From Gemmatimonadales bacterium (lineage in GTDB: Bacteria; Gemmatimonadota; Gemmatimonadetes; Gemmatimonadales; GWC2-71-9), in contig DAOLIZ010000003.1 of the NCBI GenBank assembly GCA_035328285.1, forward strand, positions 1-48,503: DNA of 48,503 nucleotides, written 5' to 3'. A program made the translations under genes and the position numbers. Position 1 is the stretch's first letter. The number at the start of each line of letters is the position of its first letter. Below the pieces are notes generated by a model that saw nothing but the letters and a program-made list of their open reading frames with translations, was not told the origin of the DNA and ran no database searches. Below are positions 96 to 21,284 of the stretch, piece after piece.

Positions 96-383
96 CTACG
101 CGGCGCAGGTGACCTTGATGCTCATCGGCGTATAGATGCCCAGCGTGAGCGCACCGACCAGTCCATTGACGAACGAGATCTGGGTTTCGACCTTCGCGAC
201 TCCATTGGTGCACTTCGCCTCGGTCTCCACCGTGGATGGCGGCACCAGGCCATAGATCCAGCTCGACGCGAATCCCCGCTCAATCACGACAGTCGAGGGG
301 GTGGCGGTCGTCTCGATCGTCGCGTGGTAGCATCCCACGGTAACGAACAGGCAAGACACGACAATGGCAATCTCCTTGCGCAT
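96..383 (-). CDS. Bor/Iss-family outer-membrane lipoprotein (95 aa)
   Basis: Internal ATG at 383 of ORF 96..548, with GGAGG about 7 nt upstream. Signal peptide plus lipobox MRKEIAIVVSCLFVTVGC. C-terminus AKVETQISFVNGLVGALTLGIYTPMSIKVTC resembles lambda Bor ...VKTETQQTFVNGLLGFITLGIYTPLEARVYC (from memory). Confidence 0.8.
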   Translation of the reverse strand: MRKEIAIVVSCLFVTVGCYHATIETTATPSTVVIERGFASSWIYGLVPPSTVETEAKCTNGVAKVETQISFVNGLVGALTLGIYTPMSIKVTCAA

Positions 384-548
384 GCAGCCTCCTCGGAATG
401 GAAGTCTGGAGCTGGACGGTCGTCCGCCCGTCGGGACGATGTCGAGTGTCGGGCTGGAGTCCCCGCTGAGCGTGGGTCGCCTCGATCCAAGCTCGGGAAG
501 TTCGACGGGCGAGTCAATGGCGGCGTGGGTGGGTGGTGGCTGCCCCAC

Positions 549-1568
549 CTACCCCCCGATCCACCCCTTCGCATCGATCAACTCCCTGACCACATCCTCG
601 CTGGTCCGGTCCGCCGCCTCCGCCGCGAAGTTGGTGACCACCCGGTGCCGCAGCACCGTCATCGCCACCGAGCGCACGTCGTCGAGATCCGCCATCGGGC
701 GGCCCGCCAGCGCGGCGCGCGCCTTGGCGCCGAGCACCAGGTACTGCGACGCCCGGGGCCCCGCGCCCCACTCGACGTATTCCCGGATGAGCGCGGGCGC
801 CCCCGCCTCGTTGGGCCGGGTCATCCGCGCGAGTGTGACCGCCGACTGGATCAGCTGCTTCGACACCGGAATCCGCCGCACCAGCGCCTGCATGGCCAGG
901 AGCTGCCTGGCGTCGAGCACCGGCTCCAGCGCCGCCCCCCGGCTCCCCGTGGTCTGCTCGACGATCGCCTCCTCCTCCGACTGCGACGGGTACCCCACCC
1001 GGAGCTCGAACATGAAGCGGTCGAGCTGCGCCTCGGGGAGGGGATAGGTCCCCTCCTGTTCGATCGGGTTCTGGGTGGCGAGCACGAAGAACGGCTCCGG
1101 CAGCGCGTAGGTCTGGCCGCCCACCGTCACCTGGTGCTCCTGCATGGCCTGCAGCAGGGCGGCCTGGGTCTTGGGCGGCGTCCGGTTGATCTCGTCGGCC
1201 AGCACCACGTTGGCGAAGACCGGCCCCTTCACGAAGCGGAAGGCCCGCTTCCCTGTGGTGAGGTCCTCCTCGATGATCTCGGTGCCGGTAATGTCGCTCG
1301 GCATGAGGTCGGGGGTGAACTGGACCCGCTGAAAGGAGAGCGCCAGCGCCTCGGACACGGTATGCACCATCATCGTCTTGGCCAGGCCGGGCACGCCGAT
1401 CAGGAGGGCGTGTCCCCCGGCCAGGATGGCGGCGAGGATCCCCTCGACGGCCTCCTCCTGCCCGACGATGCGGCGGGCCACCTGGGAGCGGAGCCGCGTG
1501 GCGGCGGCCGCCAGCTGCTGGAGTTGTTCGACGTCGGACGGGGTCGTGCTGGTGACGGTCATGTCCAC
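549..1568 (-). CDS. MoxR-family AAA+ ATPase
   Basis: 339 aa. Walker A LLIGVPGLAKT, Walker B VVLADEINR, overall MoxR-like layout (RIVGQEEAVEGILAAILAGGH...). GTG start at 1568; alternative ATG at 1562. Confidence 0.9.
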   Translation of the reverse strand: MDMTVTSTTPSDVEQLQQLAAAATRLRSQVARRIVGQEEAVEGILAAILAGGHALLIGVPGLAKTMMVHTVSEALALSFQRVQFTPDLMPSDITGTEIIEEDLTTGKRAFRFVKGPVFANVVLADEINRTPPKTQAALLQAMQEHQVTVGGQTYALPEPFFVLATQNPIEQEGTYPLPEAQLDRFMFELRVGYPSQSEEEAIVEQTTGSRGAALEPVLDARQLLAMQALVRRIPVSKQLIQSAVTLARMTRPNEAGAPALIREYVEWGAGPRASQYLVLGAKARAALAGRPMADLDDVRSVAMTVLRHRVVTNFAAEAADRTSEDVVRELIDAKGWIGG

Positions 1569-3662: not shown

Positions 3663-3856
3663 CAGGTGCGGGACCCCGGCGCCGCGCGCTGCCGCCGCCG
3701 GGATGACAGGTAGTCCGCCGAATGGCGGATGATGCGCCCGCTGGCTCCCGCGTGGAGTCGTTGGCGGGCCGCCGGGAAGGACCGCGCTGGAGACGCGGTG
3801 CCGGACCGGGTGGCGCAACGACCAGACATCTCCACTCTTGAACAGGACTGACCCAA

Positions 3857-4141
3857 ATGTTCCTCCTCAATCTCGTGCAGGACATGGCGCCGTCCGGCGC
3901 CGACATGGTGGCGGCCGCCAAGAACTCCTACTCGCTCCTCGGCGCGGGCCTCGGCATCGGCCTGGCCATCATCGGCGCCGGCCTCGGTCTCGGCCGCATC
4001 GGCGGGCAGGCCGCCGAAGCGATCGCCCGTCAGCCGGAAGCGGCCGGCGAGATCCGCGGCGCCGCCATCGTGATCGCGGTGCTCCTCGAAGGCGCCACGA
4101 TCATCGCGCTGGTGTTCGCCCTGCTCTTCAAGCTCATCTAA
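3857..4141 (+). CDS. atpE: F-type ATP synthase Fo subunit c
   Basis: 94 aa hairpin proteolipid. GAGLGLGRIGGQAAEAIARQPEA loop and carboxylate in VLLEGATII. Confidence 0.95.
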   Translation: MFLLNLVQDMAPSGADMVAAAKNSYSLLGAGLGIGLAIIGAGLGLGRIGGQAAEAIARQPEAAGEIRGAAIVIAVLLEGATIIALVFALLFKLI

Positions 4142-4150
4142 GGCGGCACA

Positions 4151-4693
4151 ATGCTCTTCGCGTTGCTTGCGTCATCCGAGGGCGCCACGGGGGCCCCGAT
4201 GTCACCCTTCGAGGTGAATTTCGGGCTCTTCTTCTGGACGTGGGCCGTCTTCATCGTACTCTTCCTCCTGTTGAAGAAGTACGCGTGGCCCGCGATCCTC
4301 AGCATGACCGAGCAGCGCGAGGAGGCCATCCGCCGCCACCTGGCGGAGGCGGAGCAGGCGCACGAGAAGGCCGCGGCGTTGCTGGCCGAGCAGCAGAAGC
4401 TGCTCGGCGAGTCGCGTACCCAGGCGCAGTCGATCCTGGCCGAGGCCAAGCTGGCCTCGGAACGGGAACGCGCGGCGGCGGTGCTGAAGACCCGCGACGA
4501 GCAGGAGCAGCTCCTGGCCCGTGCCCGCCGCGAGATCGCGGCGGAAGGGGAGCAGGCCCGGCAGGAACTCCGCCGCGAGGCGGTGGACCTCTCGCTGGCC
4601 GCCGCGTCCAAGCTCATCGGCGAGCGGCTCAGCGCCGACGCCGACAAGAAGATCGTGATGGATTTCCTGAGCACGCTGGAGTCGACGCATTGA
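4151..4693 (+). CDS. atpF: F-type ATP synthase Fo subunit b
   Basis: 180 aa. Single N-terminal TM helix followed by a long Ala/Glu/Arg-rich coiled coil. Position after atpE. Confidence 0.9.
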   Translation: MLFALLASSEGATGAPMSPFEVNFGLFFWTWAVFIVLFLLLKKYAWPAILSMTEQREEAIRRHLAEAEQAHEKAAALLAEQQKLLGESRTQAQSILAEAKLASERERAAAVLKTRDEQEQLLARARREIAAEGEQARQELRREAVDLSLAAASKLIGERLSADADKKIVMDFLSTLESTH

Positions 4694-5226
4694 GGCACGA
4701 AGCGATCGCCCGGAACTACGCCGAGGTGCTGTTCGAGCTCGGTGAGCAGCACGGGGAGAGCGAGCGGTACGGCGCGCTCCTCGAGGCGCTCGCGGCCGCG
4801 GTGACCGCGACGCCGCAGGTGCTGGCGGTGATGATGTCGCCGCGGGTGCCGAAGGCGGCCAAGGCCGAACTGCTGGCCGACGCGCTGCCCGACGCGCCCA
4901 AGCCGTTCGTGCTCTTCCTGCAGGCCCTGGTCAAGCGGAGCCGTCAGGGGCTGCTGGACGAAGTGGCGCAGGTCTACACCGGCATGGTGGACGCCAAGCT
5001 CAACCGCGTGCGGGTGGGGGTGACGCTGGCCCACGCGGCCGATGCCGCCCTGCAGCAGCAGATCAGCACCAGCCTGACCAAGGCACTCGGCAAGGAGGCG
5101 CTGGTGCGCTTCGCCGCCGATCCCGCCCTCCTGGGTGGCTCCGTGGTGCGCGTCGGCGACCGGGTGCACGACGGCTCGCTGCGCCGCAAGATGATCATGC
5201 TTCGGCGGCAGCTGCTCAACCGGTAG
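4690..5226 (+). CDS. atpH: F-type ATP synthase subunit delta (OSCP)
   Basis: TTG at 4690 overlaps the atpF stop (TTGA). RNYAEVLFELGEQHG... start and ...GGSVVRVGDRVHDGSLRRKM end are typical of delta subunits. Confidence 0.85.
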   Translation: MRHEAIARNYAEVLFELGEQHGESERYGALLEALAAAVTATPQVLAVMMSPRVPKAAKAELLADALPDAPKPFVLFLQALVKRSRQGLLDEVAQVYTGMVDAKLNRVRVGVTLAHAADAALQQQISTSLTKALGKEALVRFAADPALLGGSVVRVGDRVHDGSLRRKMIMLRRQLLNR

Positions 5227-5248
5227 CGCGCCATCCCGCGACGTCGAG

Positions 5249-5284
5249 ACGGGTCCATCCGGAAGGGTGGGCCCGTTTGTTTTC
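5249..5284 (+). terminator. Strong rho-independent terminator of the atp operon
   Basis: 12-bp stem ACGGGTCCATCC (5249-5260) / GGGTGGGCCCGT (5265-5276, two G-U pairs), GGAA tetraloop, then TTGTTTTC tail. Confidence 0.8.
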
Positions 5285-5324
5285 ACGAATCCCCCGGGGC
5301 GGGCGTCGTGGTTTGCCCGAGCGT

Positions 5325-5375
5325 CGCGGCAGGGGCGGGCGTCGAGCTAGCGGGCCTACGCCCGCCCCTGCCGCG
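5325..5375. repeat. Perfect 18-bp inverted repeat (left-end hairpin)
   Basis: CGCGGCAGGGGCGGGCGT (5325-5342) pairs with ACGCCCGCCCCTGCCGCG (5358-5375) around a 15-nt loop. GGGGCGGGCGTCG also occurs as a direct repeat at 5296-5308 and 5332-5344. Confidence 0.85.
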
Positions 5376-5456
5376 GCGAGTTCGCAATATCGTTGGCGTA
5401 GCACCGATGATTGCCCATGCAAATGGATGATGCGGGGTTGCTCTGGGCGGAGTAGG

Positions 5457-5894
5457 ATGGCGGTTGGAGGCGCCGTGTCGAGATCCATCGTGCGAGTTGG
5501 GGTTCATCTTGTCTGGGCCACGAAGCATCGGGCTCCGTGCCTGGAGGCACCGATCAGGAGGCAGGTGATTCTCGTCCTGGCCAGCATCGCGAAGCGACAG
5601 CGATGCCGGCCGGTCGAGATCAATGGTTGGCTGGACCACGTGCATCTCTATCTGAAGATTTCGCCTGAGATCGCTCTTGCCCGATTGGTGGTGTCCCTCA
5701 AGGCCAACTCGAGCCGCTGGATTAGGTTGAACGTTCCGACGCTGCCGGAGTTCCAATGGCAACGCGGCTTTTGGGCCTACAGCGTCGATCCTCGCGATGA
5801 TGCCAACCTCCGCGCGTACATCCGGTCCCAGGAGGAGATCCACGCGCAACGAGCCCTGGTGCCGGCACGCAGGATGATTGTGTCGGCACCCTGA
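5457..5894 (+). CDS. IS200-like Y1 (HUH) transposase / REP-associated tyrosine transposase
   Basis: 145 aa from the ATG at 5457. VHLVWATKHR N-terminal motif, HUH motif DHVHLYL, catalytic Tyr region WQRGFWAYSV...LRAYIRSQEE. Confidence 0.85.
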   Translation: MAVGGAVSRSIVRVGVHLVWATKHRAPCLEAPIRRQVILVLASIAKRQRCRPVEINGWLDHVHLYLKISPEIALARLVVSLKANSSRWIRLNVPTLPEFQWQRGFWAYSVDPRDDANLRAYIRSQEEIHAQRALVPARRMIVSAP

Positions 5895-5930
5895 CCGCGC
5901 TTGGCCCATCGGCATCGCTGATTCGCTTTG

Positions 5931-6013
5931 GATGGGGCGGGCATCTGCCCGCCCCATCTTGGAATGGGCGCCTCTGCCCGTCCCATCCTGCGATGGCGGC
6001 CTCTGTCCCATTG
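5931..6013. repeat. Three tandem ~30-nt palindromic (REP-like) units at the right flank of the transposase
   Basis: Unit A is the perfect hairpin GATGGGGCGGGCA-tc-TGCCCGCCCCATC (5931-5958). Degenerate units follow at 5961-5988 and 5991-6013. Confidence 0.7.
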
Positions 6014-6111
6014 CTTGATGCATCCCTCCCCGCCCACGGTTCCCGCATCCCCATGGCGTGACTAGTTTTGGGAGTCCGATCCCGTCCCCCTGTCTCACTC
6101 CGGAATCCACC

Positions 6112-9084
6112 ATGCTTCTCGCGCTCCTGACGCTGGCCACCCTGCAGCAGGCCACCCCCGGCACCGGCCCCACGCCGTACTGGCAGCAGTTCGTGGCCTA
6201 CGAGATCGACGCCTCCCTGGACGAGCCGAGCGGCGTGCTGTCGGGGCGCCAGCGGCTGGTGTATCGCAACAACTCCCCGGACACCCTGCGCCAGATCAGC
6301 TTCCACCTCTACCTGAACGCCTTCCGCCCCGGCAGCCGGTGGTCGGACGCCGACTCGATCGAGAACACCCGCCGGTTCAACGACCTCAAGGATCCCGACT
6401 TCGGCTTCAACCACGTCCGGAACGTCCGGATGATGGGGTATATCGTCGAACCGATCTATCCGTTCGCCCCCGACAGCACGATCGTGCGCTTCATGCTGCC
6501 GAAGCCGCTGGCGCCGGGGGATTCGCTGGTTGGCGAGATGGACTGGGATGCGCGCCCCTCGACCGTCCCCCGCCGCCAGGGGCGCCGGGGCCGCGCCTTC
6601 GACTTTGCCCAGTGGTATCCACGGGTGGTGACGTACGACCAGTTCGGGTGGGAGGAGCATCCCCTGTATCCCGCCGGGGAGTTCTACGGTGAATTCGGCA
6701 CCTTCCTGGTCCGCCTGAACGTGCCGGAGGACCAGGTCATCGGCGCCACGGGGGTGCCGGTCTGCGGCGATCCCGGGTGGGCCCGCGCGAACCAGGCGCC
6801 GGGCCGGCGCGTAGACTACGAACGCGACTTCTACGGCGATCCGGCCCGCTTCTCCTGCCCCGCCGCCGCCCCGGCGGCCGGGCGCAAGGTGGTCACCTGG
6901 TACGCGGCCGACGTCCACCACTTCGCCATGTCGCTCAATCCCGACTACCGCTATGAGGGCGGCCGGTGGGGTGGGGTGGCCGTCCACGTCCTCTACCAGC
7001 CCGGCGACGAGAAGAGCTGGGGTGGCGGAGTCGCCGTGCGGCGGACGGAGATCGCGCTGGCCTGGCTGAACCAGACCTTCGGCGCCTTCGCCTGGCCGCA
7101 GATCACCAACGTGCACCGGATCGAGGGGGGCGGCACCGAGTTCCCGATGATGATCATGGACGGCTCGGCGGGGCAGGGCCTGATTGTCCACGAACTGGGC
7201 CACAACTACGTGATGGGAATCCTGGCCAACAACGAATGGCGGGAGGGGTGGCTCGACGAAGGGTTCACGTCGTACCAGGAGGGACTCTTCACCGAGGCGA
7301 ACGGCGGCAACTCAGGCATCGCCGGCACCGAGCAGTTCCTGCTCGGCATGCAGCTCGACGGGTACGCCGAACCCTACAGCATGGTCAGCAACGACTACCG
7401 GGACTTCTTCACCTACAACGTGAGCATCTATTCCGGCGGCGAGCTCTTCCTCCGCCGGCTGCAGTACGTGGTCGGCGACTCCACCATGCAGGCGGTGCTC
7501 CGGAATTACTATGCCCAGTGGAAGCTGAAGCACGTCAACGAAGACCGGTTCCGGGCGGTCGCCGAGGAGACCTCGCAGCAGCCGCTGGGGCCGTTCTTCG
7601 CCCAGCAGCTGCACGGGGTGGACCTCACCGACTACGCCGTGGGCCGTACCAGTCGGACCCAGGAGCCCGACGGCGGCTGGGTGACGCGCGTCGAGGTGCT
7701 CCGGAAGGCGCCGCGTCAGATTCCGGTCGAGGTGCAGGTGACGGGGAAGACCGACACGGCCACGGTGCGATCCGTCGGCACGGCGGACCGCGAATGGGTC
7801 GTCGTGCGCACCCGCAGCGAGCCGACCGGTGTCACCCTCGACCCGCGGGTCCAGACCGGCGACTGGAACTTCCTGAACAACCACAAGTCGTTCGGGCTCC
7901 TTCCGAATCCCGGCCGGACCGAGCCTTATCTCGACACCTATTTCTCGACCCGGACCGCCCGCGATCACATGACGCTCGGCCTCGCGCCCGAGGCGTGGTA
8001 CAACGACGCCGGTGGTGTCACCCTCGGACTCCGCAGCCGGTCGGATTACCTGGGTCGCTACGACCAGAACCTGCTCTCCATCACCGGCGGCACCGGCTGG
8101 GGCGCCGACGACCCGGTCACCAACATCGACGTCTTTGCCCGCGTCAAGAATCCCACCGCCCTCCGCTCCCCGAACATGAGCCAGGTGTTCGAAGGGTTCA
8201 GCATGGAAGGGCGCGCCGGGGCCACCGTCATTCTCGAGAAGAAGCGGCGCGCGCACCGGACCTTCGGGCCCACGGTCACGAGTGGGTTGTCGCTCCGCTG
8301 GGTCAGCACCACGGATACCGCATTTCTCGACCCCGGCTACTACCAGAACGCCGGCACGGGCGAGGCGACGATGTACGGCGGGGTAGCCACGCGCTCCGGC
8401 GCCTGGCAGCTCGCCGTCAACGGCTCGGTGGGGGGCGGGGTCATGTACGACAATGAAGGCCCCGGCATCACCACGGACGACCGGTACGACACGCAGGGGT
8501 ATTTCCGCGGCTTCCTCGTGGCCACGGCGAAGCGGGCCTTCGACAAGACCTCGCTCGCCCTCCGCGGGTACGCCGGCGCCGCGCTGGCCAATGATCCGGT
8601 GGTCAAGCAGCGGCAGATCTACCTGGCCGGCGCCGACCCCTACGAGCAGCTCTACAATCCGTTCCTGCGCTCCGAGGGAGCGCTCCTGGTCCGCCCCGGG
8701 GTGTACTACCAGGCGCCCGGCGGCGCCAACCTCCGCGGCTTCGACCCGCACACCAGCTCCCGGCAGGCCTACGGACTCAATGCGCAGATCGAGCGGACGC
8801 TCGTTTCGCGCCGGGGCGCCAGGCTGTTCAGCACGGTCAGCGTCAGTCTCTGGGGCGACGCCGCCCTGGCGGACCCGCCGAGCGGGTCGGCGGCATACGG
8901 CCCGCTGCGCGGATTCTACGATGCGGGTCTTGGCGTGAGCGCCTCGCACCGGATCGGCCAGACCTCGTTCGTGACGCGGTTCGACATGCCGCTCTTCGTG
9001 AGCCAGGCGGGGCTCGCGCAGGACACCGACCCGACCGACCAGGTGGGGTTCCGCTGGCTCTTCAGCTTCGCGCCGGCCTTCTAG
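6112..9084 (+). CDS. M1-family (gluzincin) metallopeptidase fused to an Omp85/BamA-like C-terminal beta-barrel
   Basis: ATG at 6112 gives a short signal-like N-terminus. GGTEFP, HELGH (7189-7203) and WLDEGF are M1 motifs. The C-terminal ~400 aa carries NLRGF, FYDAG and the terminal strand FRWLFSFAPAF. Confidence 0.85.
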   Translation: MLLALLTLATLQQATPGTGPTPYWQQFVAYEIDASLDEPSGVLSGRQRLVYRNNSPDTLRQISFHLYLNAFRPGSRWSDADSIENTRRFNDLKDPDFGFNHVRNVRMMGYIVEPIYPFAPDSTIVRFMLPKPLAPGDSLVGEMDWDARPSTVPRRQGRRGRAFDFAQWYPRVVTYDQFGWEEHPLYPAGEFYGEFGTFLVRLNVPEDQVIGATGVPVCGDPGWARANQAPGRRVDYERDFYGDPARFSCPAAAPAAGRKVVTWYAADVHHFAMSLNPDYRYEGGRWGGVAVHVLYQPGDEKSWGGGVAVRRTEIALAWLNQTFGAFAWPQITNVHRIEGGGTEFPMMIMDGSAGQGLIVHELGHNYVMGILANNEWREGWLDEGFTSYQEGLFTEANGGNSGIAGTEQFLLGMQLDGYAEPYSMVSNDYRDFFTYNVSIYSGGELFLRRLQYVVGDSTMQAVLRNYYAQWKLKHVNEDRFRAVAEETSQQPLGPFFAQQLHGVDLTDYAVGRTSRTQEPDGGWVTRVEVLRKAPRQIPVEVQVTGKTDTATVRSVGTADREWVVVRTRSEPTGVTLDPRVQTGDWNFLNNHKSFGLLPNPGRTEPYLDTYFSTRTARDHMTLGLAPEAWYNDAGGVTLGLRSRSDYLGRYDQNLLSITGGTGWGADDPVTNIDVFARVKNPTALRSPNMSQVFEGFSMEGRAGATVILEKKRRAHRTFGPTVTSGLSLRWVSTTDTAFLDPGYYQNAGTGEATMYGGVATRSGAWQLAVNGSVGGGVMYDNEGPGITTDDRYDTQGYFRGFLVATAKRAFDKTSLALRGYAGAALANDPVVKQRQIYLAGADPYEQLYNPFLRSEGALLVRPGVYYQAPGGANLRGFDPHTSSRQAYGLNAQIERTLVSRRGARLFSTVSVSLWGDAALADPPSGSAAYGPLRGFYDAGLGVSASHRIGQTSFVTRFDMPLFVSQAGLAQDTDPTDQVGFRWLFSFAPAF

Positions 9085-9116
9085 GGGAGGGGCGGCCACC
9101 CCGCTAGACTTCGGGC

Positions 9117-9701
9117 ATGACGGGACCCTGGGATCGTGGCGATGGCAACCGGCGGGACTTCTTCCGGAACCTGCTCGGGGACTGGATCGACGACTTCGTC
9201 AAGAAGACCGAGGAGACGGTGGTGCAGAAGCGCTACCACCGTCCGCCGGGTGCGCTGGCGGAGGTCGGGTTTCTGGCGGCGTGCACCCGCTGCGGCGATT
9301 GCGGAACCGTCTGCCCGCCGCATGCCATCCAGTTCGCGGCCCCCAGCGCCGGGCTTGCCGCGGGGACGCCATTCTTCGACCCGCGCCTGCAGCCGTGCAT
9401 CGCCTGCCCGGACATGCCGTGCGCCGCGGCCTGCCCGACCGATGCGCTGACCGTCCCCGCCCAGGGCTGGGCGGGCGTGCACATGGGTGTCCTGGAACTC
9501 CTGCCGGAGCGGTGCATCACCTTCCAGGGCTCGGAGTGCTCCGTGTGCGCCAAGGCCTGTCCCATCGGCCCCGACGCGCTCGCCATCGACGAGGCGGGAC
9601 ACCCGGTCATCCGGGCGGAAGGATGTGTGGGCTGCGGTGTCTGTGTGCGCGCGTGTGTCACCGCGCCATCTTCGTTCAAACTTCGACCCGTGGGGACCTG
9701 A
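9117..9701 (+). CDS. NapG/MauM-like ferredoxin with four [4Fe-4S] motifs
   Basis: 194 aa. RRDFFRNL twin-arginine-like motif, RPPGAL...F, then CTRCGDCGTVCP, CIACPDMPCAAACP, C..CSVCAKACP and CVGCGVCVRAC. Confidence 0.85.
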   Translation: MTGPWDRGDGNRRDFFRNLLGDWIDDFVKKTEETVVQKRYHRPPGALAEVGFLAACTRCGDCGTVCPPHAIQFAAPSAGLAAGTPFFDPRLQPCIACPDMPCAAACPTDALTVPAQGWAGVHMGVLELLPERCITFQGSECSVCAKACPIGPDALAIDEAGHPVIRAEGCVGCGVCVRACVTAPSSFKLRPVGT

Positions 9702-10054
9702 TGCCGGATGTGCCGTACCGGGTGGACAAGCCGTGGGGCCATGAGCTGATCTGGGCCCGCACCGACCGCTACGTGGGCAAGGTGCTGCATGTAAAGGCGG
9801 GCCACGTGCTCAGCCTGCAATACCACAACAAGAAGGACGAGACGATGCACGTCCTGTCCGGCGAGCTCATCCTTCGGACGAAGCCCGGCGCCGAGCTGGA
9901 AGCACGCGCCTTCAAGGCCGGCGACTCCGTGCATATCCCGGCGGGACTCGTCCACCAGATCGAGGCCGTGGTGGACAGCGACGTCCTCGAGGCCTCGACG
10001 CCGGAACTGGACGACCTGGTCCGGCTCTCCGACCGCTACGGACGGGGGAGCTGA
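9701..10054 (+). CDS. Cupin-domain protein (type II phosphomannose-isomerase-like cupin)
   Basis: ATG at 9701 overlaps the ferredoxin stop by 1 nt. KPWGHELIWA...GKVLHVKAGHVLSLQYHNKKDETMHVLSGEL. Confidence 0.8.
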   Translation: MPDVPYRVDKPWGHELIWARTDRYVGKVLHVKAGHVLSLQYHNKKDETMHVLSGELILRTKPGAELEARAFKAGDSVHIPAGLVHQIEAVVDSDVLEASTPELDDLVRLSDRYGRGS

Positions 10055-12346: not shown

Positions 12347-13919
12347 CACCCTCGCCCGATCCTATCTCGACCTCCGGTGGAACTTCGATCCGGCGGCCGG
12401 AACGGCGGCCGGTGACGCCGCCTCGGACGCCCGGCTCGGCACCTTCGACGATGTCAGCGTCCGGCGGCAGCTCGCCGCCTACCGCGCGATGGCGGGAGCG
12501 GTCGAGGAACTGGAAATCGCCGGGTTGCAGGACGAGATCGACAGAACGGCGCTCCTCGACGACATTCGCGTCTCCACCTTTCGGTTCCAGCACGAACGCC
12601 CCCACGTCCACGACCCCGCCTTCTGGCTCTCCCACCTCTTCGGCGCCTACTACGGCCTGATTGAACGGGCCGCCGACGAGACGGAACGGCGGGCTGCGGC
12701 CGCGCTCGCCAGGCTGCAGGCCACGCCGGATTTCCTGGCCAGCGCCGGCGCCACCCTGCGGAGCCAGCCGCCAGTCATGCTGGGCACCGGCCTGACCATG
12801 CTTGAGGGTGGCGCCGACCTGCCGGGGTTGCTGGCCGCCGAGTTCGGGCGCCGGGTTCCCTCCATGAACGACGCGCTCGCGGCGGCGGCCCACGAGGCCG
12901 CCGCGGCGCTGGCCCATTTCAAGACCACGCTCCGCACCGAGCTCCAGACCAACCCGGCGGAACTCTCCTTTGCCGTCGGGGAGGACGAGTTCAACCGTCG
13001 CCTCCATCACGAGCACGCGCTGCGCGCGACGGCCCCTGAGTTGTGGCGCTACGGACTCCGGCTGGTGGAGGAGACTGGGGCCGAGATGCAGGCGGCCGCC
13101 CTGGCGCTCAGCCCCGGCGCGCCGTGGGCGGAGACCGTGCGTCGCCTCCGGACCGAGGGGCTGGGCGTGTCGGTGCTCGAGGCCTACGCGGACGAGGTCG
13201 GGCGGGCCCGCGGCTTCGTGGCCGAGTCGGGCATCGTGGAGCTGCCTTCCTCCGAGCTCCGGGTCGAGGCCACCCCGGCCTATCTGCAGCACTTCCTGCC
13301 CGCCGTCTGGTGCGAGCCCTCGAGTCCCGCCGAGCGCGCGCGGGGCGGCCGACTCCTCATCAGCGACGCGAATGGTGGCGCGGTCCACTCGCGGTACGAA
13401 ACGTGGGCCTGGGCCGCGGCGGAGGTCTGGCCCGGTCACTTCCTCCAGCGGGAGACGGCCGCCGCCCAGCCCTCGCTCGTCCGGCAGTACCTCTGGACCC
13501 CGCTCACCGTGCGGGGCTGGGCGCTCTATTCGGAGGAACTGCTGGCGGCCGCCGGGTTCGCCGGCGGGCCGGAGGAGCGGCTGATGGGCATCGCGCGCCG
13601 GCTCCGCGCCGGGGTGCGTGTCATCCTCGACATCGGCCTGCATACCAGGGGCATGACCCCGACCGAGGGGGTGTCGTACGCGGTCGAGCACCTCGCGGTC
13701 GACCGCGAGGAGGCGATGGAGATGGTGCGGCGGGCCAGCGCCCGGCCCACCTACGCCCTGGCCGACGCGGTGGGGCGGCGCGAGATCCACCGGCTGCGCG
13801 ACGCCTGGCGCGAGCGGGTCGGGCCGGACGCCCCCCTCCGCCAGTTCCATGACGCCATGCTCTCCTACGGGGGGCTGCCGGTGTCACTGATACGATGGGG
13901 CATGGGACTCGACGACTGA
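12330..13919 (+). CDS. DUF885-family protein
   Basis: Internal ATG at 12330 (17-nt overlap with the upstream gene). WPGHFLQ core and C-terminal FHDAMLSYGGLPVSLI are typical of DUF885. Confidence 0.8.
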   Translation: MPSATDTLARSYLDLRWNFDPAAGTAAGDAASDARLGTFDDVSVRRQLAAYRAMAGAVEELEIAGLQDEIDRTALLDDIRVSTFRFQHERPHVHDPAFWLSHLFGAYYGLIERAADETERRAAAALARLQATPDFLASAGATLRSQPPVMLGTGLTMLEGGADLPGLLAAEFGRRVPSMNDALAAAAHEAAAALAHFKTTLRTELQTNPAELSFAVGEDEFNRRLHHEHALRATAPELWRYGLRLVEETGAEMQAAALALSPGAPWAETVRRLRTEGLGVSVLEAYADEVGRARGFVAESGIVELPSSELRVEATPAYLQHFLPAVWCEPSSPAERARGGRLLISDANGGAVHSRYETWAWAAAEVWPGHFLQRETAAAQPSLVRQYLWTPLTVRGWALYSEELLAAAGFAGGPEERLMGIARRLRAGVRVILDIGLHTRGMTPTEGVSYAVEHLAVDREEAMEMVRRASARPTYALADAVGRREIHRLRDAWRERVGPDAPLRQFHDAMLSYGGLPVSLIRWGMGLDD

Positions 13920-13937
13920 CCCGAGCGAGGAGCGCAC

Positions 13938-15050
13938 GTGAGAATCACCGTCCTGACGTACGTCGAGGCCAGTGAACGCTCCACCGAGTACGACGTGGTG
14001 GTGAACCAGGTGGCGCGAGCGCTTCGGCGGCAGGGGCACCAGGTGGCCATCCTCGGGGTCCACGCCGACGTCAAGCGGGTGATTGCCGGACTCCAGCGCC
14101 GCCGCCCCGACCTCGTCTTCAACATGGTGGAGATGTTCGCCGAAAATATCTTCGGCGATATCGCCATGGAGGGGTTGCTCGACCTCCTCGGCCTCGAGTA
14201 CACCGGGTGTGGCCCCGGCGAATCCTATCTGACACAGGACAAGGCTCTCTCCAAGAAACTGCTCGCCTTTCACGGCATCCTGTATCCCCGGTTCGCCGTC
14301 TTCGCCCGGGACGCCGACTTCGAGACCGGCGGCAACCTCCGCATGCCGCTCTTCGTCAAGCCGCTCCGCACCGACGCCTCCATCGGCATTCACCGCAACT
14401 CCCTGGTGACCGACATGAAGACGCTGATGCGCCGCGTGGCCACCATCCACGATGACCTCAACGACTCCGCCCTCGCCGAGGAGTACATCGAGGGGCGGGA
14501 GTTCTATGTCGGCGTGCTGGGCAATCACGACCCGATTGCGCTCCCCCCGATTGAACTGGACTTCTCCGGGCTCCCCGAGGGCGTGCCGCACGTGCTCGAC
14601 AGCAAGGCCAAGTGGGACGAGAACAGCGCGGCGTACAAGGGGACCAAGTCGGTGCTCGCGGACCTGCCCGACGAGCTCCGCGCCAAGCTCCAGAAGGTCT
14701 CGGTCGATGCCTATCGCGCGCTCCGGGTGCGCGACTACGGCCGCGTGGACCTGCGGCTCACCGACACCGGCGACATCTACGTGCTGGAGGTGAACGCGAG
14801 CTGCTACCTGGCGCGCGACAGCGAGTTCGCCATGGCGGCGGCCGCCGCGGGCATCCCGTATCCCGCGCTGATCCAGAAGATTGTCGACCTGGCGACCGAC
14901 CGGTACCGGCGCGGCGCGGGGTTGCGGACGCGGACCGAAAGCCCGAAGAAACCGGCGCCGAACGGGAAGAAGGGTGGGGACGCGGGAAAGAAGCCGGCGG
15001 ACGAGGGGAAGAAGGGCGAGGATTCCGCGAAGAAGGCCGCCGAGGACTAG
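13938..15050 (+). CDS. D-Ala-D-Ala-ligase-like ATP-grasp ligase with Lys-rich disordered C-terminal tail
   Basis: GTG start with GAGGAG SD. ATP-grasp motifs LFVKP, EEYIEGREF, VLEVNA. Tail is ...SPKKPAPNGKKGGDAGKKPADEGKKGEDSAKKAAED. Confidence 0.9.
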   Translation: MRITVLTYVEASERSTEYDVVVNQVARALRRQGHQVAILGVHADVKRVIAGLQRRRPDLVFNMVEMFAENIFGDIAMEGLLDLLGLEYTGCGPGESYLTQDKALSKKLLAFHGILYPRFAVFARDADFETGGNLRMPLFVKPLRTDASIGIHRNSLVTDMKTLMRRVATIHDDLNDSALAEEYIEGREFYVGVLGNHDPIALPPIELDFSGLPEGVPHVLDSKAKWDENSAAYKGTKSVLADLPDELRAKLQKVSVDAYRALRVRDYGRVDLRLTDTGDIYVLEVNASCYLARDSEFAMAAAAAGIPYPALIQKIVDLATDRYRRGAGLRTRTESPKKPAPNGKKGGDAGKKPADEGKKGEDSAKKAAED

Positions 15051-16069
15051 CGGAGGTAGGCTCCCGAGTGGACGTAGTTCATGGCCAGCGACGTGACCAG
15101 GGTGGTCAGCGCCACGGTAATGGCGGGTTCCTGCGACTCGTGGTAGGACAGGTCCAGGCTCTGGGCCCTCGCGGCCAGGTGATCGACCAGGACGCGCGTG
15201 CGATCGGGGAAATGCCCGGTCCACCGGAAGACGTTGTCGAGGAGCTCCGGTTCCAGACGGCGCAGCAACTGGGAGGCCGCCCTCGGCTGGAGCATGGCGC
15301 CACGGTCGGGGAAGATGCTCTTCAGCGTCATGTCCAGGTTCAGGCCGAGCCGCGACTCCTGCGGCAGCAGGTCGCGGTAGAACTTGGCGAGGGAGTACTC
15401 GATCTCCCCCACATCCTCGTCCAGCTCGTCGTCGACCACGATCGGCTCCCGGTCCAGCAGCGAGGCGAGGGTGCGTTCGCAGTACTCCAGCTTGGCCAGC
15501 GCCTCCGGCCGCCCCGCATACTCGGCGCGCCAGTCTGATCCCGGGGTGATGAAGACGGCAAAGGTCTCCGCCCAATCCTCGTCCGGGTGCTTCTGGGCAT
15601 ACCAGCCCGGCAGGTGCCTGACGTGCTTCTTGCTGAACGGAATCGGGCGGTAGTCGTCCTCGTACGGTTCGCTCATCGATCCGAAGAGCCGCTCCCACTC
15701 CGGCCGGTCGTAGAGCCGGTAGGCGTAATTCACCACGTGACCCATCTCGTGACGCAGGTAGCGGAGGATCTCGTCCCGGTTGTGTCCCTCGACATGGCCG
15801 GCCCGCTCGGCATGCATCTCCTCGAGCTCCTCGTGGGCCAGGTAGAACGGAATGGCGATGGCCACCGTCTCGAACGGCACCCCCCACTCCGTGGAGAGGT
15901 AGAAGCGGGGCGAGACCCGCCGCAGCCCGACGACCTCGAGCTCCTTGCGGAACTCCTCCACGACCGGCTCCAGCCGGGTCCCCTCGATGGTGAGGCCCAG
16001 ATCGCGAATGGGCATCGACCAGAGGGTCGATTCGCGGAAGGTGGTCGGGGGCGAGTGCGGGGCGGTCAT
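15047..16069 (-). CDS. Putative zinc-binding metallopeptidase (HEMGH; Peptidase_Mx-like)
   Basis: 340 aa. LRHEMGHVVNYAY HEXXH motif and downstream DEDWAETFA. Its stop shares the CTAG tetranucleotide with the ATP-grasp stop. Confidence 0.75.
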   Translation of the reverse strand: MTAPHSPPTTFRESTLWSMPIRDLGLTIEGTRLEPVVEEFRKELEVVGLRRVSPRFYLSTEWGVPFETVAIAIPFYLAHEELEEMHAERAGHVEGHNRDEILRYLRHEMGHVVNYAYRLYDRPEWERLFGSMSEPYEDDYRPIPFSKKHVRHLPGWYAQKHPDEDWAETFAVFITPGSDWRAEYAGRPEALAKLEYCERTLASLLDREPIVVDDELDEDVGEIEYSLAKFYRDLLPQESRLGLNLDMTLKSIFPDRGAMLQPRAASQLLRRLEPELLDNVFRWTGHFPDRTRVLVDHLAARAQSLDLSYHESQEPAITVALTTLVTSLAMNYVHSGAYLR

Positions 16070-16111
16070 CTGAAAAAGGTAGTCGCCTCCGGCCCGATGG
16101 GGAGGAGGATG

Positions 16112-16139
16112 AATCCGGATTGCGTACGTAATTACGTAC
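16112..16139. promoter_or_regulatory. Candidate operator: two adjacent perfect palindromes in an AT-rich divergent intergenic region
   Basis: AATCCGGATT (16112-16121) and GTACGTAATTACGTAC (16124-16139), 22 nt upstream of the MFS ATG (16161). Confidence 0.5.
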
Positions 16140-16160
16140 AGTAGAAAGATAAAACATTAC

Positions 16161-17396
16161 ATGACAAAGACTTACAGCAGCGCTGGCGACGGCCAGCCAA
16201 CGGCCCCGCTGCCCCCCGGCCCCGCTGCCCTCCCTGCAACGGTCAAGGGCCTTTCCCTCGTCTCGCTCTTCAACGACTTCGCGAGCGAGATGGTCTACCC
16301 CCTCCTGCCCGCCTTCATCACATCGCTCGGCGGCGGCCCCGCCCTCCTCGGGGCGCTCGATGGCGCGTCCGACCTCACCTCGGCCCTCCTCAAGTGGCTC
16401 AGCGGCCGCTGGGCGGACAGGCCCCGATGGCGGAAGCCCCTGATTCTCGTGGGATACGGCACGGCCCTCTTCATCCGGCCCTTCATCGCCCTGGCGGGAG
16501 CGGCCAGCACGGTCCTCGGGTTCCGGGTCATCGACCGGGTGGGGAAGGGGCTTCGGACGCCGGCCCGCGACGCGATGATCGCGGATGCCACCCCCGCGCC
16601 GCTCCTCGGCCGGGCCTTCGGATTCCACCGCGGCGCTGATCACTTCGGCGCGGTGCTCGGGTCGGTGGCCGCGTGGTTCCTGTTGACCAGGGGGGTGCCG
16701 GTCCGCGATGTCATCGCGTGGACCTGGCTCCCCGGGGTCGTCGTCATGCTGATCCTCTTCCGGGTGCTGCGACATGCCCCGTCGGTCAAGCCGCGCGATC
16801 CGGTCGCGCCGACACAGCTCGACGCCACCGGCCGGGTATTCTGGGGACCGATGCTGATGCTGGCGGCGCTCACCCTCTTCCGGGTGCCCGAGGCGCTGCT
16901 GCTCTTCCGTCTGCAGGGACTGGGCGTGCCGGTGGCCACCGTTCCCCTGGTCTGGGCCGGCCTCCACGTGGTGCGCAGCGGGGCGGCCTATCCCGGCGGG
17001 TGGTTGAGCGACACGCTGGGCACCCGGGGGACAGTGGCGGTCGGCGGGCTGTTGTTCGCGGGGGTGATGTACCTGCTGGGTGGTGCGCTCACCGAGGCGG
17101 CCGGCGTGGCCGCCTTCCTGGCGCTCGGCCTGGCGGGAGGACTGCTGGAACCGGCGGAGCGGTCACTCGTGGCGCAACTGGCGCCGGTGCGAACCGGACG
17201 CGGTTTCGGGGCCTATCACGGGGTCACCGGGCTGGCCGCACTTCCCGCCGGCCTCCTGTTCGGGCTGGTCTACCAGCGCGCCGGGGCGGAGGTCGCCCTC
17301 CGGGCGTCGGCGGCGCTGATGACCGTCACGGCGCTGGGGTGGCTGGTGATTCGCTCCCCCGGTCGGACCCCTCCACCACCCCTCCGGACACGATGA
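16161..17396 (+). CDS. MFS transporter
   Basis: 411 aa with about 12 TM helices. FNDFASEMVYPLLPAF and RVIDRVGKGLRTPARDA motifs. Confidence 0.85.
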   Translation: MTKTYSSAGDGQPTAPLPPGPAALPATVKGLSLVSLFNDFASEMVYPLLPAFITSLGGGPALLGALDGASDLTSALLKWLSGRWADRPRWRKPLILVGYGTALFIRPFIALAGAASTVLGFRVIDRVGKGLRTPARDAMIADATPAPLLGRAFGFHRGADHFGAVLGSVAAWFLLTRGVPVRDVIAWTWLPGVVVMLILFRVLRHAPSVKPRDPVAPTQLDATGRVFWGPMLMLAALTLFRVPEALLLFRLQGLGVPVATVPLVWAGLHVVRSGAAYPGGWLSDTLGTRGTVAVGGLLFAGVMYLLGGALTEAAGVAAFLALGLAGGLLEPAERSLVAQLAPVRTGRGFGAYHGVTGLAALPAGLLFGLVYQRAGAEVALRASAALMTVTALGWLVIRSPGRTPPPPLRTR

Positions 17397-17907: not shown

Positions 17908-18101
17908 CAGCAGCACCTTGTCGGGGAATCGCCGTAGCGCGCGGTGAGGTACTCGGCATAGTACTCACGTTCGGAGGGCATCGCTGTGCCGGGGTGGTGC
18001 CGGCGCCGGTGCTCGAGGTAGGCGGCGTAGTCCGGCATGCCGGCCATCCGGCGGATCGCCCGCAGCGCGCGCTGGAGCCAGCCGCCCACCTCAGCGCGCA
18101 T
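17907..18101 (-). CDS. ybdD: YbdD/YjiX-family small protein (CstA partner)
   Basis: GMPDYAAYLEHRRRHHPGTAMPSEREYYAEYLTARYGDSPTRCC, ending in the characteristic RCC. ATG at 18101 (alternative GTG at 18116) overlaps the cstA 3' end. Confidence 0.85.
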   Translation of the reverse strand: MRAEVGGWLQRALRAIRRMAGMPDYAAYLEHRRRHHPGTAMPSEREYYAEYLTARYGDSPTRCC

Positions 18102-20130: not shown

Positions 20131-20167
20131 AAGATGTTGACGAAGTGCGCCCGCCGGAAGCACCTTC

Positions 20168-20215
20168 GCTGCCCCGCTGCCCCGCTGCCCCGCTGCCCCG
20201 CTGCCCCGCTGCCCC
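20168..20215. repeat. Perfect tandem octanucleotide repeat (GCTGCCCC)x6; (GGGGCAGC)x6 on the cstA sense strand
   Basis: Six exact 8-nt units counted directly, followed by a degenerate GCCTGC. Lies between cstA (start 20130) and the divergent SDR gene. Confidence 0.95.
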
Positions 20216-20331
20216 GCCTGCTTGCCCTCTTCCCGGCCGCGCCGTACCTTCGACGGTCTATGCCGACTCCTCCCTCCGAATTCAAGGGCAGCCACTGGCA
20301 GGCGGCCGGCCGCCGCAGCGGCGGCGCCGTG

Positions 20332-21126: not shown

Positions 21127-21284
21127 GCCGCCCTCGCCCCACCCCTCCCATCCCATTAGATTTCCGCGGCTTACGGCCCTTCGTCCCGAGGAACGGCGAA
21201 GAGCGTATCCCGTTGTTCAACAGTGACTTACCAGAGGGTGTTCGCCCCTGATGTTGGGCCGGATGCCCGGACAAGGGAGTCCAC

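Follow-up and report, generated by a model that had tools for sequence, protein, structure and literature searches.

Omp85 proteins are central to the biogenesis of the outer membrane, and to our knowledge every member that has been studied well inserts or translocates proteins. Strand 1 of an Omp85 barrel has its N-terminus in the periplasm. Domain IV of M1 aminopeptidases is usually helical and regulatory.

Several described systems combine an enzyme with an outer-membrane barrel. The type Vd proteins PlpD and FplA consist of a patatin phospholipase, a single POTRA domain and a C-terminal 16-stranded Omp85-type barrel in one chain. The enzyme domain of PlpD was experimentally found to be periplasmic, which contradicts its transport to the surface or medium (PMC11116518). 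Heinz and Lithgow (2014) defined 10 Omp85 subfamilies, including 'metallo' (PF00149) and 'noNterm', the latter being accepted in the superfamily as POTRA-less; none of the 10 has a peptidase-M1 architecture, and the survey does not use the word 'peptidase' (PMC4104836). noNterm Omp85 paralogues occur in Leptospira (PMC11358297). AaaA of P. aeruginosa, a type Va protein, is a surface-exposed M28 aminopeptidase that stays permanently attached to the outer membrane through the classical autotransporter barrel at its own C-terminus (PMC3426542). BepA, a zinc metallopeptidase, acts on the periplasmic side of an Omp85 barrel (PMC8423444), but it is a separate soluble M48 endopeptidase with a TPR domain and not a fusion.

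Here, a gene of a Gemmatimonadales bacterium (GCA_035328285.1, contig DAOLIZ010000003.1) was analyzed that encodes a protein of 990 aa plus stop codon (6112-9084, plus strand); the window, i.e. the whole stretch of DNA that was analyzed, comprises 48,503 nt. Structure modelling predicts an M1-family zinc aminopeptidase joined to an outer-membrane barrel of the Omp85 type that is very divergent and lacks a POTRA, and the barrel is most likely a tether and not a means of secretion. The protein shares with PlpD and FplA the arrangement of an N-terminal hydrolase and a C-terminal 16-stranded barrel in one chain, and its enzyme domain would probably be periplasmic, as was shown for PlpD (PMC11116518). 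It differs from them in carrying an M1 zinc peptidase and neither patatin nor POTRA, in a barrel that is too divergent for PF01103, and in belonging to a family found only in Gemmatimonadota, as far as seen. Like the 'metallo' and 'noNterm' proteins, the family has a non-POTRA enzyme or nothing N-terminal of the barrel; however, those subfamilies were found via recognizable Omp85 profiles, and the Gemmatimonadales barrel is not recognizable in this way. A literature search for M1/aminopeptidase-Omp85 fusions and for Gemmatimonas envelope proteomics found the architecture described nowhere. The patatin proteins, which the sequence-only reading had regarded as the only enzyme precedent, are not the only one, because the PF00149 subfamily had been listed by Heinz and Lithgow (PMC4104836).

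PlpD recently showed that the Omp85 scaffold can be reused for holding an enzyme at the periplasmic face. The M1-barrel family would add an independent second example, which is new with respect to the enzyme class, the lack of a POTRA, and a barrel that is missed by Pfam and NCBIfam. As standard annotation misses the barrel, databases label the protein only as 'M1 family metallopeptidase'.

The M1 peptidase module and its leader

The longest open reading frame of the locus opens at GTG 6058, but ATG 6112 was chosen as the start because the homologues start there (MLLAL...). The N-terminal leader is probably a short Sec signal peptide, as judged from the sequence. A conserved LLxLQQ precedes the mature YWQQ start, and many homologues have a basic n-region, whereas the protein of the present genome has no clear one. 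In the AlphaFold2 (AF2) model of all 990 aa, the pLDDT was below 50 at aa 1-21, M1 domains I-III occupied aa 22-595, and a 16-stranded barrel occupied aa 620-990. A promoter and terminator scan of 5200-9800 yielded nothing informative. The features are collected in Table 1; the coordinates that the sequence-only reading had given for HELGH, NLRGF and FYDAG proved correct on the translation, and those of GGTEFP, WLDEGF and FRWLFSFAPAF were verified likewise.

Table 1. Predicted features of the gene and its protein
Feature	Nucleotides	Residues	Strand	Basis or remark
Putative N-terminal hydrophobic leader (MLLALLTLATLQQATPGTGPT)	6112..6174		+	homologues: h-region before invariant WQQ
M1 domain I (N-terminal beta domain)	6175..7011		+	AF2 strands, Foldseek alignment, invariant columns
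M1 catalytic (thermolysin-like) domain II	7012..7611		+	Pfam PF01433, profile alignment to ColAP 3cia
GGTEFP	7129-7146 (GGTEF 7129-7143)	340-345	+	
HELGH	7189-7203	360-364	+	
WLDEGF	7249-7266 (zinc-ligand Glu383 7258-7260)	380-385	+	
Catalytic Tyr440	7429-7431	440	+	pairs with Tyr of PYVKGQ in 3cia
M1 domain III, all-beta sandwich	7624..7896		+	DSSP: strands only at aa 508-576
Linker, domain III to barrel strand 1	7897..7968	596-619 (~24 residues)	+	conserved YFSTRxxRD
16-stranded Omp85-superfamily-like outer-membrane beta-barrel	7969..9081	620-990	+	AF2, Foldseek, hhalign
Periplasmic turn T3, AHRTFGP	8251..8271	714-720	+	kept in M1-bearing proteins
Loop 6, strands 11-12, 58 aa	8590..8763	827-884	+	AF2 strand order
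Loop 6 element YLAGADP	8620-8640		+	
Loop 6 element NPFLRS	8656-8673		+	
Loop 6 element NLRGF	8728-8742	873-877	+	
Strand-13 motif LWGDAA	8848-8865	913-918	+	D916 invariant; family consensus AFGDxA
FYDAG, strand 14	8914-8928	935-939	+	D937, G939, G941 invariant
Terminal strand 16, beta-signal-like FRWLFSFAPAF, last residue Phe	9049-9081 (stop 9082-9084)	980-990	+	

The M1 core proposed from the sequence was borne out by both searches. Pfam PF01433 matched aa 356-495 with 54.6 bits versus a cut-off of 27.7 (E=1.5e-14), and Foldseek aligned the M1 module with IRAP, ERAP and PepN over about 630 columns (E ~6e-21). The profile alignment to ColAP 3cia paired GGGTEFP with FGGMENP, HELGH with HELAH, WLDEGF with WLNEGF, and IYSRGE/IYSGGE with PYVKGQ, and these residues are invariant. 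Glu383 is located 19 residues past His364, and thus the HEXXH-X18-E spacing is present. In 36 homologues with 58-94% identity, all catalytic residues (H360, E361, H364, E383, E343, Y440) were invariant, as were the barrel residues R875, G876, D916, D937, G939, R981 and W982; the putative catalytic and barrel motifs are not attributable to chance. The module is a complete gluzincin core that is predicted to be catalytically competent. In GGTEF, the equivalent of GXMEN, Gly-Gly and Glu are kept and invariant, but Met is changed to Thr and Asn to Phe, and the specificity of a strict aminopeptidase can therefore not be taken for granted.

The fold of domains I-II-III is shared with PepN, ERAP/IRAP, LTA4H, ColAP 3cia and the Deinococcus two-domain M1 protein 6a8z, together with HEXXH-X18-E, the catalytic Tyr and the Glu of GXMEN. 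Apart from the change to GGTEF, the protein differs from these aminopeptidases in domain I, which is highly divergent, beyond the reach of Pfam Peptidase_M1_N, and contains invariant Arg-rich insertions that were modelled with low confidence (aa 68-98, 151-159, 174-193). The sandwich of domain III ends in an invariant DWNxLNN (7861-7881) and lies within the Foldseek alignments to M1 aminopeptidases with four domains. A further difference follows C-terminally, where in the model the barrel stands in place of the helical domain IV, and the family would thus show an M1 peptidase swapping its regulatory domain for a membrane barrel.

A POTRA had not been visible in the sequence, and a beta-alpha-alpha-beta-beta unit was not found between the enzyme and the barrel; residues 505-595 contain only beta structure and correspond to M1 domain III in the AF2 and Foldseek analyses. 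A cryptic POTRA was rejected because this segment is M1 domain III. The linker that follows would in principle be long enough to span the pore.

The C-terminal barrel and barrel-only orthologues

Foldseek searches with the full-length model were dominated by M1 aminopeptidases, and therefore the barrel was modelled separately. AF2 predicted 16 strands for the isolated domain, with a pLDDT of 86 and a pTM of 0.84. The best matches in the PDB were TamA (1.5e-7), B. thetaiotaomicron BamA (6.7e-6), Sam50 (1.2e-5), N. gonorrhoeae BamA (1.4e-5) and FhaC (2.8e-4), with TM values of 0.40-0.51, in agreement with the Omp85-type barrel that had been suggested from the sequence. The 18-strand AlgE also matched at 1e-4. 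A soluble ERAP1_C-like C-terminal domain, the outcome that had been named as the counter-case, was rejected because a closed 16-strand barrel was modelled with confidence. The suggested richness of the C-terminal part in aromatic residues did not hold, as F/Y/W account for 11.8% versus 12.5% in the N-terminal part (Gly 12.3% versus 10.2%).

None of the sequence profiles matched the barrel significantly. The Peptidase_M1 match was obtained in Pfam, but PF01103 (Bac_surface_Ag) and PF03865 did not match at E<=10, and the barrel family was not found with Pfam and NCBIfam in searches with the full protein or the barrel alone. Likewise, the consensus sequences of the family, of the barrel-only proteins and of the distant clade gave no Pfam match at E<=10, and the barrel profile gave none against PDB sequences at E<=10. 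Two distant members (P0261, P0225) matched PF01103 colinearly on the corresponding half of the profile, with E-values of 0.004 and 0.027 that are sub-threshold (17 and 14 bits versus a cut-off of 24). With hhalign, the motifs were colinear with a TamA/BamA alignment at P=0.0046, but at a probability of only 7.6%, and a comparison of the barrel profile with E. coli BamA as a single sequence yielded nothing but noise. The alternating hydrophobicity of the barrel strands (1.34 / -1.03) was indistinguishable from that of the soluble M1 strands (1.36 / -1.01). An autotransporter family was not matched in Pfam, the linker has no long helix, and the strand number is 16 and not 12 as in type Va.

Of the three Omp85 hallmarks that had been recognized, the NLRGF of loop 6 (L6) and the terminal strand were retained, whereas FYDAG turned out to belong to strand 14, and the equivalent of the strand-13 motif is LWGDAA. 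In L6, R853, G856, G870, R875 and G876 are invariant, the last two down to about 25% identity, and the loop aligns to TamA FFAGG...IRGY. LWGDAA pairs in hhalign with TamA VFVDSG, which itself matches BamA FFWDMG, with the last Gly of (F/G)xDxG replaced by Ala. FYDAG aligns with TamA GTGVGV and BamA SAGIAL. Family members end in F, W, L or I, and in the barrel model strand 16 came out short and with low confidence. The invariant barrel residues concentrate in L6 and strands 12-16; R875, D916, G939/G941, P960 and R981/W982 remain fully or almost invariant at identities as low as 23-28%. The barrel thus resembles TamA and BamA in its 16 strands, the RG(F/Y) of L6, the acidic strand-13 motif, the Gly-rich strand 14, the Pro on strand 15 and the aromatic C-terminus. 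In contrast to them, it has no POTRA domains, its identity is only 10-14%, the Gly of motif 4 is replaced (FGDxA), and L6 has a 30-residue insertion between (Y/F)xAG(G/A) and RGF.

In principle, the barrel might stem from another family, such as porins or AlgE-like exporters, or be a beta domain that is soluble; the resemblance of its motifs to those of Omp85 would then be convergent. The insignificant Omp85 profiles, the AlgE match, the TM values of only ~0.4-0.5 and the hydrophobicity alternation that failed to separate barrel from soluble strands are in line with this. However, almost all of the 50 best Foldseek matches are Omp85 proteins, the best of them with an E-value ~700-fold better than that of AlgE. 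Exactly 16 strands, a long conserved loop with RGF between strands 11 and 12, motif colinearity over five strands, and sub-threshold PF01103 matches on the corresponding half of the profile also argue against another origin, and the closed barrel of high pLDDT excludes a helical domain of the ERAP1_C type. Such an origin is regarded as very improbable. According to the models, the barrel is a member of the Omp85 superfamily, which is called highly divergent because the sequence profiles lacked significance for it.

In some lineages, a 394-aa barrel-only orthologue that resembles noNterm proteins is present in the same genomic slot. These orthologues have a constant length, retain RGF, FGD, DAGxG and the C-terminal aromatic residue, and lack the linker with YFSTRxxRD; the only sizeable deletion is the periplasmic turn T3. 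They represent a built-in natural comparison of barrel function and enzyme function.

Side of the membrane and function

We propose, with a probability of about 60%, that the exported polypeptide is a three-domain M1 aminopeptidase whose POTRA-less divergent Omp85 barrel holds the peptidase at the periplasmic face of the outer membrane. The barrel would insert into the outer membrane, and, as its strand 1 would start in the periplasm, the peptidase would be held against the periplasmic face, where it could trim N-terminal residues off peptides or unfolded polypeptides. In loop 6, the RGF is expected to lock onto acidic residues of strands 12 and 13 and to plug the lumen, so that the barrel would be an anchor and a platform rather than an export pore for a 600-residue enzyme. 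From strand 7 onward, the would-be extracellular connections have 13, 13, 58, 12 and 16 aa, whereas the would-be periplasmic connections have 2, 2, 8 and 2 aa; this pattern would put the start of strand 1 on the periplasmic side. Omp85 topology, the lengths of loops and turns, the loss of T3 together with the M1 module, and the PlpD precedent all favour a periplasm-facing enzyme, and surface exposure of the M1 module appears disfavoured.

The type-Vd-like surface protease of the sequence-only reading therefore stands as an enzyme-barrel fusion, but its surface or secreted location is disfavoured by the topology, the periplasmic PlpD and the barrel-only orthologues. In the corresponding rival explanation, a POTRA-less barrel similar to type Vd autotransporters would carry the M1 module across the outer membrane, yielding a surface or secreted protease, possibly a cell-surface aminopeptidase that scavenges peptide nitrogen and is AaaA-like in function. 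The order of an N-terminal enzyme and a C-terminal barrel is that of autotransporters, AaaA is itself an aminopeptidase autotransporter that is tethered to the surface (PMC3426542), the conserved linker of 24 aa could cross the pore, and a gene for the CstA peptide transporter lies 9 kb downstream. Nevertheless, the barrel has 16 strands and a lumen-filling L6 and not 12 strands with a helical linker, the passenger is a 600-aa globular zinc enzyme and not a vectorially folding beta-helix, and the PlpD precedent has now been shown to be periplasmic. The barrel-only orthologues keep a constant length and all motifs, and it is a periplasmic turn that was lost along with the M1 module. Transport to the surface is thus regarded as unlikely. 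A pure self-export barrel is disfavoured because barrel-only orthologues exist in the same slot.

The latter show that the barrel can be kept without the enzyme, which would also suit a primary role of the barrel as an accessory Omp85 protein that engages outer-membrane protein or envelope cargo, with the tethered M1 module processing or degrading stalled clients. The protein would then correspond to the BamA-BepA quality-control pair united in a single chain. The best-conserved parts, L6 and strands 12-16, are the functional core of Omp85 proteins, and the short, low-confidence strand 16 is reminiscent of a lateral seam. The zinc metallopeptidase BepA acts at BAM (PMC8423444, PMC13478230), and periplasmic quality control was suggested for enzyme-Omp85 fusions by Heinz and Lithgow (PMC4104836). 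However, an aminopeptidase requires free N-termini and would be an odd tool against stalled barrels, there is no POTRA for receiving substrates, and genes for BAM, Skp and SurA are absent from the conserved neighbourhood; this role is considered quite unlikely. That a POTRA-less Omp85 machine engages clients at the seam of strands 1 and 16 or in the lumen, and that the attached M1 module processes or destroys them, is likewise regarded as quite unlikely. If true, it would be a self-contained, Gemmatimonadota-specific device for outer-membrane quality control or maturation, and the barrel-only lineages would retain the Omp85 activity alone. A related option of similarly low probability is that the enzyme is exported by its own barrel via a new type V route that does not depend on a POTRA.

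Distribution and gene neighbourhood

The phylogenetic distribution, which had been proposed as a check, revealed 555 relatives in species genomes, of which the best 80 are full length. The family is confined to Gemmatimonadota, as far as seen, and the gene is part of the syntenic core of Gemmatimonadales. It thus belongs to the conserved gene set of a phylum that is widespread in soil and water and whose envelope biology is almost unstudied.

tblastn searches of the window with the barrel, P0152 and BamA revealed neither a paralogue nor a BamA, and the conserved neighbourhood contains no BAM, Skp or SurA genes. The gene order around the atp genes and the downstream genes is conserved. A functional operon link to either of them was rejected because the order reflects general synteny of the lineage and does not include envelope-biogenesis genes.

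The gene and its M1 module

The ORF encoding the M1-barrel protein is real. Mechanically it can be extended upstream to a GTG at 6058; the starts of the homologues match the position of the ATG (MLLAL..., a short hydrophobic stretch, then an invariant WQQ). The G+C content of the window is about 69%. The closest relatives stem from Gemmatimonadales metagenome-assembled genomes (MAGs), are named just "M1 family metallopeptidase", and have PF01433 as their sole annotated domain.

The sequence-only reading had proposed a complete M1 core, and all of its motif coordinates were borne out. Pfam Peptidase_M1 matched residues 356-495 with 54.6 bits (cut-off 27.7). When a profile of 36 homologues was aligned to the cold-active aminopeptidase ColAP (3cia), GGGTEFP corresponded to FGGMENP, HELGH to HELAH, WLDEGF to WLNEGF, and IYSRGE to PYVKGQ. 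Based on this alignment, H360, H364, and E383 are the zinc ligands, E361 is the general base, Y440 the transition-state Tyr, and E343 the Glu of the GXMEN motif. All of these residues are present in the M1-barrel protein and invariant across the homologues, so that the core is indeed complete. The GXMEN motif reads GGTEF, and with this change exopeptidase specificity is probable rather than certain.

Foldseek matched the full-length AlphaFold2 (AF2) model (pLDDT 77, pTM 0.76) to IRAP, ERAP1/2, and PepN over about 630 columns (E about 6e-21), and on this basis residues 22-595 are predicted to represent M1 domains I, II, and III. The all-beta region that connects the catalytic domain to the C-terminal part (residues 505-595) is modelled as the domain-III sandwich; this ruled it out as a POTRA domain, in agreement with the earlier impression that none lies between enzyme and barrel. 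Near-invariant segments of domain I (see table), for example, NAFRPGSRW..RRFNDL, PRRQGRxGR, and GWEEHPLYPAGEFYGEF, are family-specific insertions, partly Arg-rich, which could serve as contact surfaces for the membrane, the barrel, or a partner.

The C-terminal barrel

The 16-strand barrel suspected in the C-terminal region was predicted by AF2 within residues 620-990, with long strands both in the full-length model and in a model of residues 600-990 alone (pLDDT 86, pTM 0.84), for which the input alignment included barrel-only relatives. Strands 11 and 12 are joined by 58 residues bearing NLRGF, and this position is that of loop 6 in Omp85 proteins. A Foldseek search of the PDB with the isolated domain yielded P. 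aeruginosa TamA as the top match (1.5e-7), followed by Bacteroides BamA, E. coli TamA, yeast Sam50, Neisseria and E. coli BamA, and FhaC. The first non-Omp85 match was the 18-stranded AlgE (1e-4). The TM-scores were modest (0.40-0.51), and a hydrophobic-face test on the strands was uninformative.

Peptidase_M1 was found by the Pfam scan as anticipated; an Omp85-type profile was not, and no barrel family from Pfam or NCBIfam matched the M1-barrel protein or the family consensus sequences. The barrel profile also had no match among all PDB sequences. Sub-threshold matches to PF01103 were found in two distant full-length members (P0261, E 0.004; P0225, E 0.027), on the corresponding C-terminal half of the profile. 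Comparison of the 91-sequence family alignment with a TamA/BamA alignment by hhalign gave a single colinear match of 122 columns (P=0.0046, probability 7.6%). It paired QRxxYLAGADP and GGAxLRG of loop 6 with RFFAGG and DRSIRGY of TamA, AFGDxA of strand 13 with VFVDSG, and DAGvGlr of strand 14 with GTGVGVRW. FYDAG, previously taken for the (F/G)xDxG hallmark of Omp85 proteins, lies on strand 14, and the probable equivalent is LWGDAA, in which Ala takes the place of the last Gly. The residues that are invariant down to 23-28% identity (R853, G870, R875, D916, G939/G941, R956, P960, and R981/W982) all map to loop 6 or to strands 12-16, which form the conserved core in Omp85 barrels. The sequence evidence is weak and points the same way as the structure. 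We conclude, mainly from the predicted structures and in addition from these signals, that the C-terminal domain is a very divergent Omp85-superfamily barrel.

Barrel-only orthologues and orientation of the enzyme

A family of 394-residue Gemmatimonadales "hypothetical proteins" (P0152 and 19 relatives) has its own putative signal peptide, directly followed by strand 1. On two long contigs its gene (X) is found exactly where the M1-barrel gene would be, with atpH on one side and the 4Fe-4S gene on the other (atpIBEFH - X - Fer4 - cupin - NTP-transferase - DUF885 - MFS), and its stop codon and the Fer4 start overlap by 4 bp. Because of this identical position, the proteins are positional orthologues without the M1 module. 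In a rough, quick neighbour-joining distance tree of the barrel they were nested within the M1-bearing diversity, which suggests secondary loss of the module; a second small group (P0150, P0155, P0162, P0168) may represent another loss. RGF, FGD, DAGxG, and the aromatic C-terminus are all retained. Compared with the M1-bearing proteins, they differ appreciably in length at one place only, where turn T3 (residues 714-720) is deleted; other loops have the same length or are longer.

In every known characterised Omp85 protein, strand 1 starts on the periplasmic side and loop 6 reaches into the lumen from the exterior. In this register, the connections of 13, 13, 58, 12, and 16 residues from strand 7 on would be extracellular and those of 2, 2, 8, and 2 residues periplasmic; the usual rule for outer-membrane proteins is that extracellular connections are long and periplasmic ones short. 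Register and connection pattern together would place the M1 module on the periplasmic side. This side is also favoured because T3, which disappears along with the module, is a turn on the periplasmic side, and because the enzyme domain of PlpD, the presumed type Vd prototype, was shown to stay in the periplasm; the authors of that study argued that a folded domain is unable to pass such a barrel (PMC11116518). From topology and the analogy to PlpD, we favour an M1 enzyme that would face the periplasm, kept at the inner side of the outer membrane. The same observations disfavour the type-Vd-like surface protease of the sequence-only reading, and exposure of the M1 module on the cell surface appears unlikely. 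A pure autotransporter role is further argued against by the orthologues that kept the barrel without a "passenger". Possible substrates of the periplasm-facing enzyme are peptides, either imported or from turnover, or envelope proteins that have stalled, as for BepA.

PlpD/FplA are among the nearest described proteins; they join an enzyme to an Omp85 barrel and have one POTRA, whereas the M1-barrel protein has an M1 enzyme and no POTRA. The ten architectures surveyed by Heinz and Lithgow, with PF00149-Omp85 and noNterm subfamilies, include no M1 peptidase (PMC4104836), and no description of an M1-Omp85 fusion was found in the literature searched. The PF00149-Omp85 and noNterm subfamilies, like the Leptospira noNterm paralogues (PMC11358297), are also among the nearest described proteins. 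AaaA is functionally alike as a barrel-tethered aminopeptidase, but is type Va and surface-exposed (PMC3426542). Thus, enzyme-bearing Omp85 proteins are known as a kind; new are the enzyme class, the lack of a POTRA, and a clade of barrels that current profiles miss.

Distribution and gene neighbourhood

When 1.84 billion cluster representatives were searched exhaustively with the barrel by phmmer, only 276 clusters matched; they contained the architecture of about 1000 residues, fragments thereof, or short barrel-only proteins, and nothing else. A scan of species-representative genomes yielded 555 relatives; the best 80 are full-length proteins, all of them from MAGs of Gemmatimonadales or Gemmatimonadota. 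Distant members bearing names are likewise Gemmatimonadaceae or Gemmatimonadales. A gene with 62% identity in a MAG labelled Bacillota (L008, JBLMWC010000065.1) shows full Gemmatimonadales synteny (MoxR, atp, Fer4, cupin, NTP-transferase, DUF885), and the contig is probably misbinned. The homologue P0248, on a 40% G+C contig (GCA_975963905.1), has multihaem-cytochrome-like genes and a nitroreductase gene as neighbours. This context is unlike that in Gemmatimonadales, and therefore the family may reach another lineage.

The gene order is kept over about 55-90% identity, with a MoxR ATPase, the atp operon, and sometimes a Y1 transposase-like gene upstream, and a 4Fe-4S protein, cupin, NTP-transferase, sometimes an HMGL-like gene, DUF885, and MFS downstream. 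These neighbours gave no hint of function.

Features in the window and in related loci
Feature	Location	Strand	Remarks
M1-barrel gene	window 6112-9084	+	990 residues
M1 domain I segment	window 6313-6405 (aa 68-98)		almost entirely invariant; pLDDT <50
M1 domain I segment	window 6562-6588 (aa 151-159)		almost entirely invariant; pLDDT <50
M1 domain I segment	window 6631-6690 (aa 174-193)		almost entirely invariant; pLDDT <50
LWGDAA	window 8848-8865		
OSCP (ATP synthase delta) ORF	window 3838-5226	+	462 aa; domain confined to last 170 residues
IS200/Y1 transposase-like ORF	window 5277-5894	+	Pfam Y1_Tnp E=6e-23
REP-like hairpins	window 5930-5998		after Y1 ORF; perfect 13-nt arms GATGGGGCGGGCA/TGCCCGCCCCATC, 29-nt tandem copy
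Fer4 ORF	window 9117-9701	+	
Cupin ORF	window 9281-10054	+	overlaps Fer4 ORF in a different frame (9117-10054)
1027-aa ORF	window 13884-16967	-	overlaps MFS transporter gene on opposite strand
CstA ORF	window 18091-21156	-	about 370 residues upstream of CstA domain
Barrel-only gene	L085 7001-8185		394 aa; putative signal peptide, 16-strand barrel, no M1 module
Barrel-only gene	L087 7001-8185		394 aa; putative signal peptide, 16-strand barrel, no M1 module
P0248 gene	L084 6001-8994		997 aa

The Y1 ORF and the hairpins separate the atp operon from the M1-barrel gene. Of 80 related loci, 26 have a Y1_Tnp homologue (36-79% identity) in this position, encoded on one strand or the other, and this suggests a RAYT/REP pair that has been resident for a long time. 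The OSCP ORF may be an over-extended call or a b-delta fusion; in the related locus L087, b (176 aa) and delta (177 aa) are encoded by two genes. The 1027-aa ORF had no Pfam match and is probably, at least partly, a high-GC artefact. The start of the CstA ORF is probably over-called, given its long upstream extension. In related loci the cupin gene encodes 118 aa and begins at the Fer4 stop, and therefore the true cupin start in the window is probably near 9700.
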